Assembly: GCA_018818285.1 (NCBI GenBank)
Contig: JAHIRT010000075.1
Span: forward strand, 1,608-33,607
Length of the DNA: 32,000 nt
Reading direction: 5' to 3'
Source of the DNA: Nanobdellota archaeon
GTDB lineage: Archaea > Nanobdellota > Nanobdellia > Pacearchaeales > GW2011-AR1
Shown: piece after piece, positions 1,075 through 30,973 of the stretch
Numbering within the stretch: position 1 is the first letter of the stretch
Layout: each line of letters begins with the position of its first letter
Program-made: the position numbers and the translations under genes
Notes under the pieces: generated by a model
What the model was told of the DNA's origin: nothing
The model's input: the letters and a program-made list of their open reading frames with translations, nothing else
Database searches by the model: none

Positions 1075-1099
1075 GCGAGTAGGATTCAAATGGAAAATT
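1075..1099 (-). other. 3' half of the pre-23S rRNA processing stem
   Basis: gcgagtaggattc (1075..1087) and atggaaaatt (1090..1099) are perfect reverse complements of 4706..4718 and 4673..4682. They bracket the whole 23S gene, as in archaeal pre-rRNA processing helices. Confidence 0.75.
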
Positions 1100-2033
1100 A
1101 TTGAGGCTTTTAGTAGTTGCGGGCTGAAATTCTCGCCGAAGCTTGAATCTTACACCCCAACTCTATTAACGTCATGTTCTTTGACGGCCTTTGTTGTCTC
1201 GTTTTGCGGATGACTTCGAGCTTAGATGCTTTCAGCTCTTATCCATTAAAGCGTAGCTGCCCGGCATGCTTGTAACAACCGGTAGACCAGAGGCTTCCAA
1301 GCCTAGTTCCTCTCGTACTATAAGCTTGTTCCACTCAAACAACAACACACCTAGTAGATATCATACAAACTGTCTCACGACGTTCTTAACCCAGCTAACG
1401 ATTCCTTTTAATATGTGAACTCCAGCACCCTTGGATGCTTGTGCACATCCAGGATAGGAAGAGCCGACAGCGATGTACCAAACCGCGCCGTCAATGTGGA
1501 CTATCGGGCGCGACGAGCCTGTTATCCTTGAGGTACCTTTTCTGTCATCAACCTGACCTATCAAAAATCATGGTTGGTTCGCTGAGCCAATCTTTCAATC
1601 CTGCTTTTCGTGCTTTTTGAAAAACAGTCAGACAAGCTTTTGCCTCTGCACTCTACTCCAGGTTTCCAAGCTGGATGAGCTTGTCTTTGGGCCCTACAGA
1701 TACATTTTCTGCAGGGTGCCGCCCCAGCCAAACTGCCCGCCTGTTGCTGTTCTTTTACAAGTTAGCGACTCCACAAAAGATAGGTAGTATTACAATTTTG
1801 CTCAGTTTCGACCGAAATCTAACTTCGACGCTCCTACCTATTCTGTGTATCTTCGGTAAAGCCACAACAACAAGTTGCAGTAAAGGTCTACAAGGTCTTA
1901 GCTTCCCACTAGGCGTATCCGGCATTTTCACCGAAAAGTGCTTTCAGAAGGTTCTAGTTAGGGACACTGACTACCTCGTTAAACCGTTCATGCACGTCGC
2001 CATTCAGACGACAAGGCATTACGCTACCTTAAG

Positions 2034-2791
2034 CAAATTGTTACTTTCATTCTTTGAAAGAATTACTAACCATCATTTGATGGCGGACTTATGCGAATAA
2101 GTCTCTATATGTCTCCACATAGTTCGGACTGTATCATCATAATTTACAATTTAGATTATGTTTGGCGTACAGTCTCTGAGGATCCCATTGATTTTAATAC
2201 CTCATCAAGTTTATACCTTCTTTGTTTTCCTCCACCATTCATTGTAAATACTTTTTTTAAAAGTCTTATGAATTCTTTTTTATTTGCATGTTTATGTTGA
2301 TCTAATTCTTTAACAACATCTGCAAATATTTCAAAATCTTTTTTCTTAGTTATTAAAGGATATTTTTTAAAAAAAGGTATAATTTTATCTACAAGGTCTC
2401 TTCTACTTTGAACAACAAATTGCATAGTATTTGGTTGACCATATTTTTTTATTATCATTCCACATTCAAACATTCTTTGAAGTGAATATAATATTTCTTT
2501 ATTCACAGAATGTTGAGTGACATGAAATATAGGGTCTAAAACCCATCTTACCTTAGCAGATTTTTGATTTTTTAGAGCAATGCAAAAGCATCCTTCTCCA
2601 TCAATAAATCCTATAAGATAATAAATTAGTTGCTCTTTATTCATGACCTCTTGTAGATGGTTAAATATTTAAATCTTTGGTTTCCTGCGGATTGTCCTTA
2701 TTTATTGAATTTTTACTATCGATAAAGATTAGTATCAATAACTTAACAGGAGTTTCCCGCATACAGCCAAATTTAAATACCCCCTAAATTG
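2034..2791 (-). mobile_element. Group I intron in 23S rRNA at the U1923/C1924-equivalent (I-CeuI-type) site, carrying a LAGLIDADG homing endonuclease gene
   Basis: Exons rejoin as GTAACTATGACCCT|CTTAAGGTAGCG. P1 pairs exon ACCCU with intron GGGGU (2779..2783), giving U.G at the splice site. Core elements: P-like UAUGCGGGAAAC (2752..2762), Q-like AAUCCGCAGG (2684..2693), R-like UCAGAGACUGUA (2168..2179), S-like GAUACAGUCC (2126..2135). P3 is TTGGC/GCCAA (2766..2770 with 2162..2166). P8 hairpin is 2138..2160. The intron ends in G (2034). Confidence 0.8.
2156..2644 (-). CDS. Single-motif LAGLIDADG homing endonuclease (intron-encoded)
   Basis: 162 aa with the N-terminal motif YYLIGFIDGEGCFCI. 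The size fits homodimeric I-CreI/I-CeuI-class enzymes. It lies between the Q and R elements (P6 region), and its last codons overlap R and P3'. Confidence 0.85.
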   Translation of the reverse strand: MNKEQLIYYLIGFIDGEGCFCIALKNQKSAKVRWVLDPIFHVTQHSVNKEILYSLQRMFECGMIIKKYGQPNTMQFVVQSRRDLVDKIIPFFKKYPLITKKKDFEIFADVVKELDQHKHANKKEFIRLLKKVFTMNGGGKQRRYKLDEVLKSMGSSETVRQT

Positions 2792-4672
2792 AGGGTCATA
2801 GTTACCCCCGCCGTTTAATGGACCTTAGCTGCCTTGAAAGGCAATTTTAGACACCACCACTGGGCAGGTCTCACCGAGTATACAAAGCTTTTCAGCTTAG
2901 CACTCAGCTATGTTTTTGATAAACAGTCGGGCAGTCCTTGTTACTGAGATCTACACTTGCCAATATATTTCAAAAAACAAGTATAGACACCCCTTATACC
3001 GAAGCCACGGGGCTAAATTGCCGAATTCCCTTAACTAGTTTCACCTTACACGTCTTAGCTTTTTAAGCTAGGGCACCTGTGTTGGTTCTAGGTACAGCTA
3101 ATTTATATCTATCCTAAGATTTTTCACAGGCTCTAAGAATCAACAAACTTTCGCAAAATAAATTTACTTGTATCTTAGCATTACGCTTCTCAAGTTTCTC
3201 TATTCAGATTGTTTTCACAACTTTGCTTATCTTAAAGCATTCTTAGGAATCAAACAACATAAATCAGTATAGGAATATTAACCTATTGTCCTTTCGTTAT
3301 ATTCATTTAAGGTATAACTTAGGAGCTGACTAACCCTCGGTTAATTGATATTGCCGAGGAAACCGCGCCCTTTCGACGTTTTCCGGTTCTCAGGAAAATT
3401 TGATCTTACTCTCACCAGGATTTGCATTTCTTTTTGCTCCACACTTTTTCTCAAAAATGCTTCTGTGCAAAAAAAACGCCTGTCTACTAGACTATCTTTC
3501 TAGATAGCTCTATGGTATCGGTACCATGTTTAGCCCTGTCAATTTTCTCCGCCAAGAACCTCAATACGTGAGCTGTTACGCTTTCTTTAAAGGATGGCTG
3601 CTTCTAAGCCTACCTCCCTACTGTCTCAGGTTCTCGACAAGATTCGATACACTTAACATGGATTTTGGGACCTTAACCATAGTCTCCGTTGTTCAGGTCT
3701 CGGAATAGCATCTTACACACTATCCCTGATTCTTATTTTATGCAGAATACAAGTTCTGAGTTGGAAGAGGTCCCGTAGTCATTTGACTCTGCAGATCTGA
3801 TCCGTACTTTACCTCATATTCAAACAAAATAAGACTATACTTAGGCATATTTCGACAGGAACCAGCCATCGCCAGATTAGATTGGCTTTTCACCCCTAAT
3901 CCCGAGTCATCCAAGTGCATGCACACAACAGCGGTTCAGGCCTCCATTTTCCTTTCGGAAAACTTCGCCTTGCTCAGGATTAGATCATCTGGCTTCGGGT
4001 CTTGCCCATATGACTATCGCCCTTTCAGACTTGCTTTCGCTAAGGCTTCGCTAAATGCTTAACCTCGCCATATAAACAAACTCCCTGGCCCGTTCTTCAA
4101 AACGTACGTTACAACTGCGTCCTTCTATAAAGAAGTGCAGCAGTAACAAAATGTAACTGTTAGATTTCAAGTCTTTTAACCCCCTATCAAGGGTACTTTT
4201 CAGCTTTCCCTCGCGGTACTATTGCGCTATCGGACTTGAGCTAATGTTTAGGGTTAGCAGTTAATCCTGCTATTTTCATACCTCCAATCCAGGAGGCACT
4301 ACTCTTTTGAAGAGCAGCATATCAAGTTTGTCTACGAGGCTTTCACTCTCTAAGGCTTCTCTTTCCAGAGAAATTCAACTCCTTGACTTAGCTACTTATC
4401 TTCACCACATCTCTTTTCTCTTTTCAGATAAAGATTCGGTTTGCCCTCTGCCCTTTTCGCTCGCTGCTATTAAGGGCATCACATGTTGTTTTCTTTTCCT
4501 GCCGGTACTAAGATGTTTCAATTCCCGGCGTAGATTTACTTCTCAGTATTAATACTGTTGCCAGATTAGGAAATTTTGGGTTCAAAGATTGCATGCATCT
4601 CACCCAAACTTATCGCAGCTTGCCACGTCCTTCATCACAGCTCAAACCAAGCTATTCATCTAACAGCTTAAA

Positions 4673-4718
4673 AATTTTCCATGAAACTAATATTTCTTTT
4701 ATGCCGAATCCTACTCGC
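4673..4718 (-). other. 5' half of the pre-23S rRNA processing stem
   Basis: aattttccat (4673..4682) and gaatcctactcgc (4706..4718) are perfect complements of 1090..1099 and 1075..1087. A 23-nt asymmetric internal loop lies on this side. Confidence 0.75.
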
Positions 4719-5162: not shown

Positions 5163-5233
5163 TGGACCTGCCGGGAGTCGAACCCGGGACACCTCCGTGC
5201 AAGGGAGGAATTTTACCATTAGACTACAGGCCC
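5163..5233 (-). tRNA. tRNA-Ala (anticodon UGC), no encoded CCA
   Basis: The reverse complement is GGGCCTGTAGTCTAATGGTAAAATTCCTCCCTTGCACGGAGGTGTCCCGGGTTCGACTCCCGGCAGGTCCA. It folds as a cloverleaf with the G3.U70 Ala identity pair, anticodon loop CTTGCAC and T-loop GGTTCGACTCC. Confidence 0.95.
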
Positions 5234-5321: not shown

Positions 5322-6776
5322 AGGAGGTGATCCCACTGCAGGTTCCCCTACAGTGACCTTGTGTCGACTTAACCTACCTTGTCTTACAAAGGCTCGTTCT
5401 CGAAAGACCTCGCCAACGCAAAACTCGGTTGGTTTGACGGGCAGTGTGTGCAAGGAACAGGGACATATTCACCGTTCGCTGCTAACAAACGATTACTACA
5501 AATTCCAGCGTCACGAGGCTGAGTTTCAAGCCTCGATCTGAACTAGGCTACATTTTAGGAGATTAGCTTCTCTTTTCAGAGTCGCATCCCATTGGATGTA
5601 GCATTGCCGCGCGCGTGTCGCCCAGGGCATTCGGGCAGTACTCACCTAACGTAGCCCGCACCTTCCTCCTGCTTACGCAGGCAGTCTGTATAGAGTGCCT
5701 CTTCATCAGATAGCAACTATACACACGGGTCTCGCCTGTTACCTGATTTAACAGGTCATCTCACGACACAGGCTGAAGTCGGCCATGCAACTCCTCTCAG
5801 CATGTCAGGTAAGCCCTTCAGACTGACCTTCATTCTGCTATCGGTCCTGGTGAGGTTCACGGTGTGGAATCTAATTGAACCGCACGCGTCACTTGTTGTA
5901 GTGCTCCCCCGCCAATTCCTTTAAGTTTCGGCCTTGCGACTATACTTCCCAGGTAGCGCACTCTTCGGCTTCCCTACAGCACCAATACCTCTCGAAGAGG
6001 TACTGATGTTTAGTGCGCAGTGTTTACTGCTAGGACTACACGGGTATCTAATCCGTTTTGCGCCCCTAGCCTTCATCCCTCACTGTCAGATCCGTATTTG
6101 TGAGATGCCTTCGCTGTTGTTAGTCCAATCAAGATCAACGTATTTTACCACTACCTTGACCGTACTTCTCACATCCTCCGGTCTCTAGCAACACAGTATC
6201 TCTTGCTCGCCCTATCCTTAAGAGATAGGATTTCACAAAAGACTTATGAAGCAAGCTACAGATGTTTTAGACCCAATAATTATGGCTACAACTTGGACCG
6301 CTGGTATTACCGCGGCGGCTGGCACCAGTCTTTCCCAGTCCTTATTCTCCAACTTTTTTACAGTTGGCAAAAGTTTCTCAAATAGAGAAACACTCTGGTT
6401 CGCTTTGTCACGCTTTCGCGCATTGCAAAAGATCCTTGATTGCTGCACCCCGTAGGGCTAGGAATAGTGTCTCAGATTCCTTCTCAGGGCTTCTCCGCTA
6501 AGAGCCCTTATGGATAATTGGCTTGTTAGTCTTTTACACCAACAACAACCTAATCCACCGCAGTCCCATCTTTAGGCATAATTTTCAGAGATAATTCCTT
6601 CCAGAATTTATCTCCTGCCAGATATTACTCTCAGTTTCCCGAGGATATCTCTGACCTAAAGTTAGGTTAACTACGTGTTACTGAGCAGTTCGCCTTGCTC
6701 CTATTTCTAAGAACAAAAACTTGCATACCTAAGTACAAACCAGATAGCTGTAACCTCCAGCAGGATAAACTGGATT
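5322..6776 (-). rRNA. rrs: 16S (SSU) rRNA, archaeal type, about 1455 nt
   Basis: Reverse-complement 5' end is AATCCAGTTTATCCTGCTGGAGG; 3' end is GGATCACCTCCT. Internal GGTGCCAGCCGCCGCGGTAATACC and AAACTTAAAGGAATTGGCGGGGGAGCAC are present. Confidence 0.95.
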
Positions 6777-24407: not shown

Positions 24408-24496
24408 TGGCTGTGGAGGGAGTTGAACCCTCGACCTCCTGCTATCTCAAAAAATTGTTTCATGAGACAGGCGTTCTGCCACTGAACTACACAGCC
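24408..24496 (-). tRNA. tRNA with CAU anticodon (elongator Met or Ile2) and a 17-nt canonical 37/38 intron (24444..24460)
   Basis: The reverse complement is GGCTGTGTAGTTCAGTGGCAGAACGCCTGTCTCATG[AAACAATTTTTTGAGAT]AGCAGGAGGTCGAGGGTTCAACTCCCTCCACAGCCA. All four arms pair. Intron TGAGA pairs with the TCTCA of the anticodon region, which is BHB-like. TATA ttttaaat lies about 24 nt upstream. Confidence 0.9.
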
Positions 24497-28513: not shown

Positions 28514-30973
28514 ATGGAAAACCATAAATTTAATTTTTCTCAGATTGAGAAAAAATGGCAGGAAAAGTGGGAAAAGGAAAAAGTTTTTGAAGTTAAAGAA
28601 AGCAAAAGCAAAAAAAAATATTATGTTTTAGAAATGTATCCTTATCCTAGTGCAAGTTTTCTTCATGTGGGCCATGTTAGAAATTACACAATCGGAGATG
28701 TTTATGCAAGATTCAGGAGAATGAATGGTTTTAATGTTCTTTATCCAATGGGTTATGATTCTTTTGGATTGCCTGCAGAAACAGCTGCAAAAAAAGAAGG
28801 AATTCATCCAAAAAAATATGCTGAAACATCTATTAAAAAAATTATGGCATATCAAAAAGCATTAGGCAATAGCTATGATTGGAGCAGAATTATTGCAAGC
28901 CATGATCCTGAATATTACAAGTGGAATCAATATTTTTTCTTAAAGCTATATGAAAAAGGACTTGCTTATAGAAAAAAAGCTCCTGTTAATTTTTGTGAAA
29001 ACTGCGAGTCTGTTCTTGCTAATGAAGAATCAGAAGGAGGAAAATGCTGGAGATGTGGAAATGAAGTTATTCAGAAAGATTTAGAACAATGGTTTTTCAA
29101 AATAACTGATTATGCTGACAAACTATTAAAAGATTTAAACAAGATTGAATGGCCTGAAAGAATTAAGATTATGCAAAAAAACTGGATTGGAAAATCTCAT
29201 GGCACTAATATTGAGTTTAAAATCAATGATGAAAAATGGCTTGTTTTCACAACACGCCCAGACACAATTTACGGAGTTACTTTTATGGTTATATCAGCCC
29301 AGCATCCAAGATTAATGGAATTAGTTTCTGAAGCCCAAAAAAAAGATGTTGAGAAATTCTTGAAAAAAATCAAGTCAACAAGTGAAAAAGATTTAGAAGA
29401 ACTTGATAAAGAAGGTGTTTTTACAGGAAGCTTTGCAATTAATCCAGTCACAAATGAAAAAATTCCTGTTTGGGCTGGGAACTTTGTTTTAGCTGATTAT
29501 GGTTCTGGAATGGTTATGGCTGTTCCTGCTCATGACCAAAGAGATTTTGAGTTTGCTAAAAAATATAAAATTCCAATTAAAGTTGTAATTCAACCTGAGC
29601 AATATGAACTTGCTCCTGAAAAAATGTCTCGTGCTTATACTGAAAAAGGAATTCTTGCAAATTCCAAAGAGCATGATAAAATTTCAAGTGATACTGCTAT
29701 TGAAATAATTTCTGATTTTTTAGAAAAAAAGAAATTAGGAAAAAGAACAATCCAATATAAATTAAGAGACTGGCTGATTTCAAGACAAAGATATTGGGGA
29801 ACACCAATACCAATAATTTATTGTGATAAGTGCGGAATTGTTCCTGTTCCAGAAAAAGAGCTTCCTGTTAAACTTCCTGAGAAAATTGATTTAAAATCTA
29901 AGGGAAACCCTCTTGCTACAAATAAAGATTTTGTTAATACTCAATGTCCGAAGTGTGCTGGCAAGGCAACTAGGGAAACAGACACTATGGGTGGTTTTGT
30001 TGATTCTTCATGGTATTTTTTGAGGTATTGTGATAACAAAAATAAGAAAAAACCATTTGATGAAAAAAAAGTAAATTATTGGATGCCTGTTGACCAATAT
30101 ATTGGAGGAGCAGAGCATGCTGTTATGCATCTGTTATATGCAAGGTTTTTTATTAAGGCTTTGAAAGATATGGGCTTTGTAAAATTTGATGAACCTTTTA
30201 AAAAACTATTTAATCAGGGAATTTTACATGCAAGTGATGGAAATAAGATGTCGAAATCTCGCCCTAAATATGTTATTTTACCTGAGATGGTTTCAGATAA
30301 ATATGGAATAGATACTGCAAGATTATTTTTAATGTTTGTTTCTTCTCCTGACAAACAAATGGAATGGACAGATAAAGGAGTTGAAGGAAGTTTTAAAATT
30401 ATAAACAAGTTAATAAGATTAAAAGATAATCTTAATACTAAATCAAACAAAGCTAATGAGAACAGAATAAATGCTACTGTTAAAAAAGTTACAGAAAATA
30501 TTGAAAATTTTGAATATCCTAAATCAATTATTGCAATAATAGAAGCATTAGATTATTTCTCTGAAGGAATCTCAAAGAAAAATTATGAAATTCTTATTAA
30601 ATTAATCTCTCCTTTCTGCCCACATATAGCAGAAGAGCTTTGGCATAATTTAGGAAATAAGAGTTTTATTTCATTAGAAAAATGGCCAAAAGCTGGCAAG
30701 ATAAATGAAAAATTATTAGCTCAAGAAAAGCAGATTGATAATTTAATTGAGGATATTAATAATATATTAAGAATTTTAGAAGGAAAAGGGGAGAAAAAAG
30801 AAAAAATAAAAATATTTGCAATTCCAAATGAAATTGATTTGTATAAAGAGGCAAAAGACAAGATTGAAAAATCAACTGGTATGAAAGCTGAAATTTTGTC
30901 AATTAAAGATGCAAAAGAGCAAGGAAAGAAAATTAAAGCAAAGCCAGGAAAACCTGGGATTTTTGTTGAATGA
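28514..30973 (+). CDS. leuS: Leucyl-tRNA synthetase, bacterial-type architecture
   Basis: PYPSASFLHVGHVRNYTIGDVYARFRRMNGFNVLYPMGYDSFGLPAE, CWRCGNEV zinc motif, CP1 TTRPDTIYGVTFMVISAQHP and KMSKS. It is collinear with E. coli LeuRS as I recall it. 819 aa. Confidence 0.93.
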   Translation: MENHKFNFSQIEKKWQEKWEKEKVFEVKESKSKKKYYVLEMYPYPSASFLHVGHVRNYTIGDVYARFRRMNGFNVLYPMGYDSFGLPAETAAKKEGIHPKKYAETSIKKIMAYQKALGNSYDWSRIIASHDPEYYKWNQYFFLKLYEKGLAYRKKAPVNFCENCESVLANEESEGGKCWRCGNEVIQKDLEQWFFKITDYADKLLKDLNKIEWPERIKIMQKNWIGKSHGTNIEFKINDEKWLVFTTRPDTIYGVTFMVISAQHPRLMELVSEAQKKDVEKFLKKIKSTSEKDLEELDKEGVFTGSFAINPVTNEKIPVWAGNFVLADYGSGMVMAVPAHDQRDFEFAKKYKIPIKVVIQPEQYELAPEKMSRAYTEKGILANSKEHDKISSDTAIEIISDFLEKKKLGKRTIQYKLRDWLISRQRYWGTPIPIIYCDKCGIVPVPEKELPVKLPEKIDLKSKGNPLATNKDFVNTQCPKCAGKATRETDTMGGFVDSSWYFLRYCDNKNKKKPFDEKKVNYWMPVDQYIGGAEHAVMHLLYARFFIKALKDMGFVKFDEPFKKLFNQGILHASDGNKMSKSRPKYVILPEMVSDKYGIDTARLFLMFVSSPDKQMEWTDKGVEGSFKIINKLIRLKDNLNTKSNKANENRINATVKKVTENIENFEYPKSIIAIIEALDYFSEGISKKNYEILIKLISPFCPHIAEELWHNLGNKSFISLEKWPKAGKINEKLLAQEKQIDNLIEDINNILRILEGKGEKKEKIKIFAIPNEIDLYKEAKDKIEKSTGMKAEILSIKDAKEQGKKIKAKPGKPGIFVE

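Follow-up and report, generated by a model that had tools for sequence, protein, structure and literature searches.

The DNA analysed here is a 32,000-nucleotide (nt) stretch of contig JAHIRT010000075.1, referred to throughout as the window, and its minus strand carries an archaeal rRNA operon in which the 23S gene is interrupted by a 758-nt insert (2034..2791; 28.8% G+C). We are highly confident that this insert is a mobile group I intron, most likely of subtype IB4, that lies after U1923 of the 23S rRNA of a low-G+C, DPANN-type archaeon and carries a homing endonuclease gene (HEG) with a single LAGLIDADG motif in the loop of its P6 helix. An earlier annotation made from the letters of the window (the sequence-only reading) had proposed a bona fide group I intron rather than one of the archaeal bulge–helix–bulge (BHB) type. 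That proposal is upheld here by the fold of the catalytic core, by covariation among related introns and by a negative test for a BHB motif. All intron features described below are on the minus strand.

The operon was located by an Rfam scan of the window, which placed the 16S rRNA at 5322-6776, a tRNA-Ala at 5163-5233 and the 23S rRNA at 1090-4683, the last as a match of 2073 bits to LSU_rRNA_archaea. In a local scan of 1880-2930, the archaeal large-subunit (LSU) model aligned to ...GGGGGUAACUAUGACCCUC, then faced 763 nt with only 5 model positions and resumed at GUAGCGUAAU..., which makes the insertion 758 nt long. The model aligns straight across the insert, and removing 2034..2791 restores the junction of helices H69 and H70, as had been claimed. 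On the RNA strand the two junctions read ...GACCCU(2792)|C(2791)AAUUUAGGGGGU...AACAAUUUG(2034)|C(2033)UUAAGGUAGCG. Because the intron and the 3′ exon both begin with C, moving the boundary by 1 nt leaves the spliced product unchanged; only the placement chosen in the sequence-only reading combines a U at the end of the exon with a G at the end of the intron. The intron is complete, as judged from the LSU alignment, from the boundaries as read and from insertion at the same site in ten archaeal loci.

Numbering of the site was checked against Escherichia coli 23S rRNA (a 2898-nt rrl copy), using the GTPase-associated centre, the sarcin–ricin loop and the 3′ end as landmarks. The spliced exon junction gave no blastn match to E. 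coli genomes in distant mode, and the E. coli H69–H71 sequence was used as the anchor instead. In this rrl copy the 5′ G of H69 is residue 1900, and the positions of the sarcin–ricin loop and of the 3′ end each differ by exactly 6 from those in the canonical 2904-nt numbering. With this offset the 5′ G of H69 becomes G1906, and the exon-terminal U of the window, which lies 17 nt further on in a gap-free match, becomes U1923. The insertion site is therefore U1923/C1924, at the H69/H70 junction, in agreement with the position given in the sequence-only reading. The site had also been named as the target of I-CeuI, and the n.1923 LSU site, a classic one for group I introns, is indeed that target (PMC3315327).

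The elements of a group I ribozyme can be placed along the insert. P1 pairs the end of the 5′ exon (ACCCU, 2792..2796) with GGGGU (2779-2783) of an internal guide sequence (2779..2787), so that U2792 forms a U.G wobble at the 5′ splice site; this hairpin had been described before, and the U.G pair occurs in 11/11 introns compared. A candidate P10, in which UUAG (2784-2787) would pair with CUU.A of the 3′ exon, was recognized by eye only. No P2 helix can be defined in the window intron because UAUUUAAAU, between P1 and P3, is too short. P3 pairs UUUGGC (2766-2771) with GCCAAA (2161-2166), the latter closing the P3/P7 pseudoknot; the sequence-only reading had placed this helix correctly as TTGGC/GCCAA and made it too short, its actual length being 6 base pairs (bp). 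The P4–P5 domain (2686..2761), which includes a CAA J5/4, is found both by a match to the Rfam group I model RF00028 and in an unconstrained minimum free energy (MFE) fold. It consists of P4 (UGCGGG, 2756-2761, with UCCGCA, 2686-2691), J4/5 (AAAC, 2752-2755) and P5 (UCCU, 2748-2751, with AGGA, 2695-2698), the last with an extended arm. P6 pairs GGAAACCA (2678-2685) with UGGGAUCC (2180-2187) and holds the open reading frame (ORF) in its loop, its 3′ strand lying inside the ORF and encoding ..MGS...

J6/7 (UCA) and the 5′ strand of P7, GAGACUGUA, make up the R segment (2168..2179), with the bulged A and the G-C pair of the guanosine-binding site, and J8/7 (AUGA) and the 3′ strand of P7, UACAGUCC, make up the S segment (2126..2137). 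P7 itself spans 8 bp with the A bulged (2168-2176 with 2126-2133). In intron numbering it reads G616-(A617)-G618ACUGUA / UACAGUCC, which agrees with the RF00028 consensus columns and with published archaeal P7 strings. P8 (CAUAAU, 2155-2160, with AUUAUG, 2138-2143) forms a hairpin at 2138..2160 and has the UAA stop of the HEG in its 5′ strand. It is followed by a P9 hairpin (2105..2122) with a GAGA tetraloop of the GNRA type and by a peripheral region (2049..2103) that both MFE and centroid folds resolve into P9.1 (2086-2103), P9.2 (2070-2083) and P9.3 (2049-2063). Four hairpins thus lie 3′ of P7, one more than had been counted. The P, Q, R and S strings that had been recognized by eye are located at 2752-2763, 2684-2693, 2168-2179 and 2126-2135, respectively. 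The last intron nucleotide is, as stated earlier, a G (2034; the terminal omega-G at the 3′ splice site), and it is a G in 11/11 introns.

The core was folded with intron positions 119-600 replaced by a GAAA loop. Unconstrained MFE and centroid folding of this ORF-deleted core returned P3, P4, P5 with its extended arm, P6, P7, P8 and four 3′ hairpins, and the core is more stable than its shuffled counterparts (z = -3.3; as stable in 0/200 shuffles). The sequence-only reading had staked its case on the folding of P3–P8, and the unconstrained fold contains P3–P9.

Related introns support the same structure. Scanning GTDB species genomes with the ORF protein identified 21 loci (given L numbers below), including 11 archaeal loci with HEG identities of 48–80%, from Ca. 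Pacearchaeota, Woesearchaeota, 'Nanoarchaeota', Micrarchaeota, Thermoplasmata and two unclassified archaeal metagenome-assembled genomes (MAGs). The insert follows directly after GTAAC(T/A...)GACC(C/G)T in 11/11 of these archaeal loci. In the 10 complete relatives, an insert of 695-795 nt with a terminal G lies between an exon U and CTTAAGGTA(G/A)CG. We aligned 11 ORF-deleted cores (the window and 10 relatives; 378 columns) with MAFFT, made no manual changes to the alignment, so that the structure could not shape it, and scored it with a hand-written structure. Standard pairs fill 94.0% of 518 cells, compared with 36–41% when the 3′ partners are slid by 1–3 columns; both sides change in 21/48 pairs, and the covariation score of 0.317 (0.136 when shuffled) was reached by 0/500 shuffles.

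Covariation extends over the individual helices. The exon GACCGU of L011 is compensated in P1 by the guide GGCGGU. P3 is paired in 100% of cells, with both-side changes in 3/6 pairs (U-A:6 / C-G:5 and others), and a P4 pair covaries (G-C:5 / U-A:6). Several compensatory pairs are found in each of P5, P6, P8 and P9: P6 is 97% paired and its inner pair alternates between C-G and U-A, and both sides change in 4/5 inner pairs of P8 and 5/7 pairs of P9. One P7 pair is G-C in the window and A-U in 10/10 relatives. The P9 loop is a GNRA tetraloop (GAGA, GGAA, GCAA or GUAA) in 10/11 introns, and P9.1–P9.3 are kept in the closer relatives and absent from L007 and L011-L013. The fifth P1 pair (columns 10/38) accounts for four unpaired cells: the guide sequences of L012 and L013 were shifted by 1–2 columns by MAFFT, and those of L006 and L010 read GGGGGC, which leaves an A.C mismatch.

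The HEG (2156..2644) encodes a one-domain protein of 162 amino acids (aa) with the single motif LIGFIDGEGCF. The ORF had been called a LAGLIDADG endonuclease, a call borne out by its match to Pfam LAGLIDADG_1 (82 bits against a cut-off of 23.1; E 6.5e-23) and by one motif with intact acidic residues, the D and E of which are invariant in 11/11 homologues. Among structures in the PDB, the protein aligns with each half of monomeric enzymes of the I-OnuI type (115 bits over two stretches; E about 1e-32) and with the single-domain proteins 5gkk (84 bits) and I-Vdi141I (3e54; 73 bits, E 3.4e-19). I-CeuI (2ex5) is matched over residues 8-99 with 54 bits (E 2.5e-13); the HEG shares the site of I-CeuI and is not its close orthologue. 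The family has 235 relatives at E<=1e-10, and dN/dS against relatives is 0.10–0.22 in the eight comparisons that are not saturated, indicating that the HEG is intact and under purifying selection. From the insertion site, we predict that its cleavage target is the intron-less GTAACTATGACCCTCTTAAGGTAGCG.

Coding sequence and ribozyme overlap at the 3′ end of the HEG. The ORF had been placed between Q and R with its end overlapping R and P3′, and the coordinates agree (ORF, 2156-2644; R, 2168-2179; P3′, 2161-2166). The C-terminal residues (..MGSSETVRQT*) are co-encoded with P6′, J6/7, the 5′ strand of P7 and P3′, and the stop codon falls in P8; in keeping with this overlap, the peptide GSSET(I/V)RQ is conserved. 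The full C-terminal string GSSET(I/V)RQT corresponds to 2156-2187, a segment near-invariant across hosts and under a double constraint, from the protein that it encodes and from the RNA core to which it belongs. At the other end of the gene, a conserved hairpin (2646..2661) adjoins the AUG. It was found in an RNAalifold consensus of 8 related introns, among which it covaries (GACCAU/AUGGUC, GACCUU/AAGGUC and AACCUUCA/UGAGGGUU), and it could gate initiation of endonuclease translation.

Related loci also differ in their endonuclease content. Three related groundwater contigs have, about 0.9 kb downstream of the HEG at LSU position 1923 (L1923), another LAGLIDADG_1 gene within the same 23S gene (L025, 2925-3380; L026, 2928-3380; L029, 1516-1971), which implies a second intron there; the 23S gene of the window has a single insert only. 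A further locus, L015 (3821-4438; Ca. Pacearchaeota CG06, PEVX01000037.1), has an insertion after the same GTAACTATGACCCT with a LAGLIDADG protein of only 33% identity, and the next 1.5 kb showed no CTTAAGGTAGCG. It may represent another lineage of HEGs at L1923, or introns in tandem.

Taken at face value, the structure suggests how the intron would work. The pre-rRNA would fold into the P3–P9 core, and the guide GGGGU would pair with the exon end ACCCU, displaying the U.G wobble. Exogenous guanosine bound in the P7 pocket, at the G-C pair beside the bulged A, would attack after U1923. The terminal G2034 would then take its place in the pocket, the freed 3′-OH of the exon would attack the 3′ splice site, and religation of the exons (GACCCU-CUUAAGG) would restore the H69/H70 junction. 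The endonuclease, presumably as a homodimer, would cut intron-less 23S rDNA near the same site, and double-strand-break repair would copy the intron in. Both this homodimeric cleavage and the homing that would follow are predicted from sequence.

Several observations weigh against the group I IB4 assignment or temper parts of it. At gathering scores, the Rfam scan of the whole window matched rRNAs and tRNAs only, and no group I match reached the RF00028 cut-off of 50 bits. A permissive scan of 1980-2840 with RF00028, the check that the sequence-only reading had suggested, gave two matches in the right order and on the right strand with the ORF between them: P4–P6 at 2628-2761 (20.2 bits, E 0.011), and J6/7-P7-P3′-P8-J8/7-P7′-P9 at 2105-2259 (34.1 bits, E 7.9e-7). 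Their E-values are significant and their scores stay below gathering. In addition, P1 is short (5 bp), the candidate P10 is weak (2–3 bp), and the intron is so A+U-rich (28.8% G+C) that unaided folding in vivo is not guaranteed. The subtype is most likely IB4 on the basis of the site, P7 string, length and HEG family shared with the published set, and guanosine-dependent self-splicing is likewise deduced from the core as read; in the library that was searched, no paper was found that demonstrates by experiment that an archaeal group I intron splices itself.

The low RF00028 scores have an explanation in the intron itself, since the 489-nt ORF in L6 splits the match, and we read the sub-threshold score as a limit of the model rather than as evidence against group I membership. 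In the catalogue of archaeal group I introns by Nawrocki, Jones & Eddy (2018; NAR 46:7970, PMC6125680), RF00028 gave no significant archaeal matches, and the introns came from subtype-specific models. The same study notes that an HEG or another insertion may break the match to an intron into several local ones, for example in IA3.1, with its HEG in P6.

The short helices and base composition would also suit an intron of group I descent that has lost the ability to splice by itself and needs a LAGLIDADG maturase or a host RNA chaperone. P1, P5 and P10 are all short, G+C content is 28.8%, and the HEG is under purifying selection in all examined lineages, which would fit a role in splicing as well. 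Some LAGLIDADG proteins, such as I-AniI, do double as maturases. We nevertheless consider such dependence unlikely, because every core element is intact and covarying, including the U.G pair, the A-rich J4/5, the bulged A and G-C pair of P7, a near-consensus J8/7 and the omega-G. Moreover, some LSU/1923 IB4 introns in the published set are only 278-324 nt long and have no ORF, and their splicing cannot depend on an intron-encoded protein.

A very improbable reading is that the insert is a classical archaeal BHB intron with an HEG, excised by the splicing endonuclease EndA. Many HEG-bearing archaeal rRNA introns are indeed BHB introns (PMC2602781), and EndA is encoded in the window as had been reported (185 aa; PF01974 and PF02778; 27190-27747, minus strand). 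About 2.7 kb from it lies a tRNA-Met(CAT) (24408-24496, minus strand) whose anticodon loop contains a 20-nt intron. ARAGORN misreads this tRNA as 'tRNA-??? catg'; its intron shows an active pathway in the genome. The BHB pathway thus exists in this organism, but the rRNA insert offers it no recognizable substrate. We searched the junctions for a helix, a 3-nt bulge, a 4-bp helix, a second 3-nt bulge and a helix, at both product-equivalent placements. There is no BHB motif at either: the central helix forms 2/4 or 1/4 pairs and the flanking helices 0–2 pairs, and a relaxed brute-force search did no better. With a central helix of at most 2/4 pairs, the BHB reading was rejected under strict and relaxed definitions alike. 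A junction mini-construct folds instead as the P1 hairpin, and the whole group I core covaries.

Equally hard to credit is an insertion that is never spliced, being either retained as an expansion segment in the mature rRNA or cut out without ligation to leave a fragmented 23S rRNA. Fragmented 23S rRNAs do occur in some bacteria. The insert, however, sits at the base of H69, which forms the intersubunit bridge B2a, so that retention of 758 nt there is implausible, and the conserved U.G pair, omega-G and catalytic core across distant hosts would be left unexplained. Least probable of all is an origin of the sequence in chimeric assembly or in bacterial or organellar contamination: although the window comes from a metagenome contig and remoter HEG relatives occur in bacteria of the candidate phyla radiation (CPR), both exons match the archaeal LSU model best, the 137-kb contig carries an archaeal 16S gene together with exosome, SBDS, proteasome-alpha and EndA genes, an identical HEG lies on a contig from a second sample, and the same intron occupies the same site in 10 other archaeal MAGs.

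The contig (ENA ERZ27247128:k141_613749; 137 kb) has a G+C content of 31% and encodes the archaeal exosome subunits Rrp41, Rrp42 and Rrp4 in addition to SBDS and proteasome-alpha; we call the host a DPANN-type archaeon. Its spliced 23S sequence is at most 79.8% identical to any relative compared, the best being a Ca. Pacearchaeota MAG. Compared with the relatives L003-L013, the intron is 74–81% identical and the 23S exons are 73–80% identical. An identity at least as high in a protein-coding intron as in the rRNA exons would be unexpected had the intron been inherited strictly vertically and speaks for its horizontal spread; these values are consistent with homing between lineages. Remoter HEG relatives (32–42% identity; L014 and L016-L023) occur in CPR/Patescibacteria, Saccharibacteria and Saganbacteria MAGs. 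One of them, L020, has an unbroken 1906-1935 segment and carries its HEG at a different 23S site, about 230 nt further 3′. These protein identities suggest a cross-domain relatedness of the endonucleases.

We tentatively consider a broader possibility, which we judge doubtful as a whole: that HEG and ribozyme are mechanistically coupled, and that the L1923 lineage moves horizontally among distant DPANN, Micrarchaeota and Thermoplasmata hosts and possibly to CPR bacteria. Since the last ~15 HEG codons are co-encoded with P6′, J6/7, P7 and P3′, and a covarying hairpin lies at the start codon, translation and catalytic folding would be mutually exclusive. If so, the splicing state would gate HEG expression. 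Neither idea is without precedent, given phage and organellar introns and a 2024 study of CPR bacteria, and each would, if true, be a refinement.

Other features of the window lie outside the intron. The operon order is 16S-tRNA(Ala)-23S, with protein genes directly 3′ of the 23S gene, and no 5S rRNA was found at the Rfam gathering score anywhere in the window (1-32000). A leucyl-tRNA synthetase (LeuRS) of 819 aa (28514-30973, plus strand) matches the LeuRS editing domain PF13603 (E 4e-68), a model that we take to be typical of bacterial-type LeuRS; the gene could have been acquired horizontally.

Correct annotation is the main consequence of these results, and their significance beyond it is small. 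Automated annotation would leave the 23S gene interrupted and report the HEG as an independent gene, named 'hypothetical protein' or 'LAGLIDADG endonuclease'. ORF-containing L1923 introns are missed by RF00028 at threshold, and the covarying alignment of 11 sequences could serve as the seed of a better model for them. Within 32 kb, a group I rRNA intron occurs together with EndA and a tRNA-Met intron of the BHB type, which bears on an old proposal that archaeal group I introns gave way to BHB introns. That such introns coexist was already documented in 2018 (PMC6125680), where the point was made with 39 introns, nine of them at this site.

The element is a further member of a published class, its kind, site, subtype, HEG family and host group having been in the literature since 2018. 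A claim of novelty is therefore unsupported, and the description of archaeal group I introns as rare was overstated, the element being a common one: the 2018 title calls them 'widespread', nine IB4 introns are known at LSU/1923, and the HEG has 235 relatives. Among more distant systems, CPR-bacterial 23S insertions with LAGLIDADG_1 (Tsurumaki et al. 2024, J Bacteriol, PMC11270868) resemble the window intron in having single-domain LAGLIDADG_1 proteins in group-I-like insertions, at neighbouring 23S positions (1917, 1931, 1952 and others). They differ in their bacterial hosts and low HEG identity, and 1923 is not among the positions reported there with LAGLIDADG_1 predominant; spread between distant taxa was already proposed in that study. 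The 23S intron of Vulcanisaeta distributa, with I-Vdi141I (PMC2602781; PDB 3e54), is likewise an archaeal 23S intron with a homologous single-motif LAGLIDADG_1 endonuclease of ~165 aa. Introns of that type are excised by EndA at a BHB, whereas the window intron has no BHB and a full ribozyme core. CeLSU.5 from the chloroplast LSU of Chlamydomonas eugametos, which encodes I-CeuI, is a group I intron at the same rRNA position with a single-motif, homodimeric LAGLIDADG endonuclease (PMC3315327). Its host is a plastid rather than an archaeon, and its protein is distant (54 bits) and longer (a 207-residue chain in 2ex5, compared with 162 aa here).

The closest known counterparts are the archaeal IB4 introns at LSU/1923, which share host gene and site with the window intron. 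The 2018 catalogue holds 39 archaeal group I introns (27 IB4 and 12 IA3), all from metagenomic sequences and mostly from DPANN phyla, and nine of the IB4 introns are at LSU/1923 (IB4.7,.9,.11,.13,.17,.18,.20,.21 and.28), six of which are 687-1133 nt long with LAGLIDADG_1 (PMC6125680). The contig of the window is absent from the catalogue's 31 GenBank records, and the likeness is one of site, P7 string, HEG family and length rather than of direct alignment. Two HEG homologues considered as links to the 2018 accessions, P0093 and P0100, lie on other contigs (Hainich groundwater assemblies, JACQCI010000110.1) and were set aside. The P7 of the window intron, GAGACUG/CAGUCC with the second position bulged, is that of IB4.7, and the GAGACUA/UAGUCC of relatives L003-L011 is that of IB4.17, IB4.18, IB4.21 and IB4.28. 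HEG family (LAGLIDADG_1) and kind of host (metagenomic DPANN phyla) are also the same, and three members come close to the 758 nt of the window intron: IB4.28 (757 nt), IB4.11 (756 nt) and IB4.13 (753 nt).

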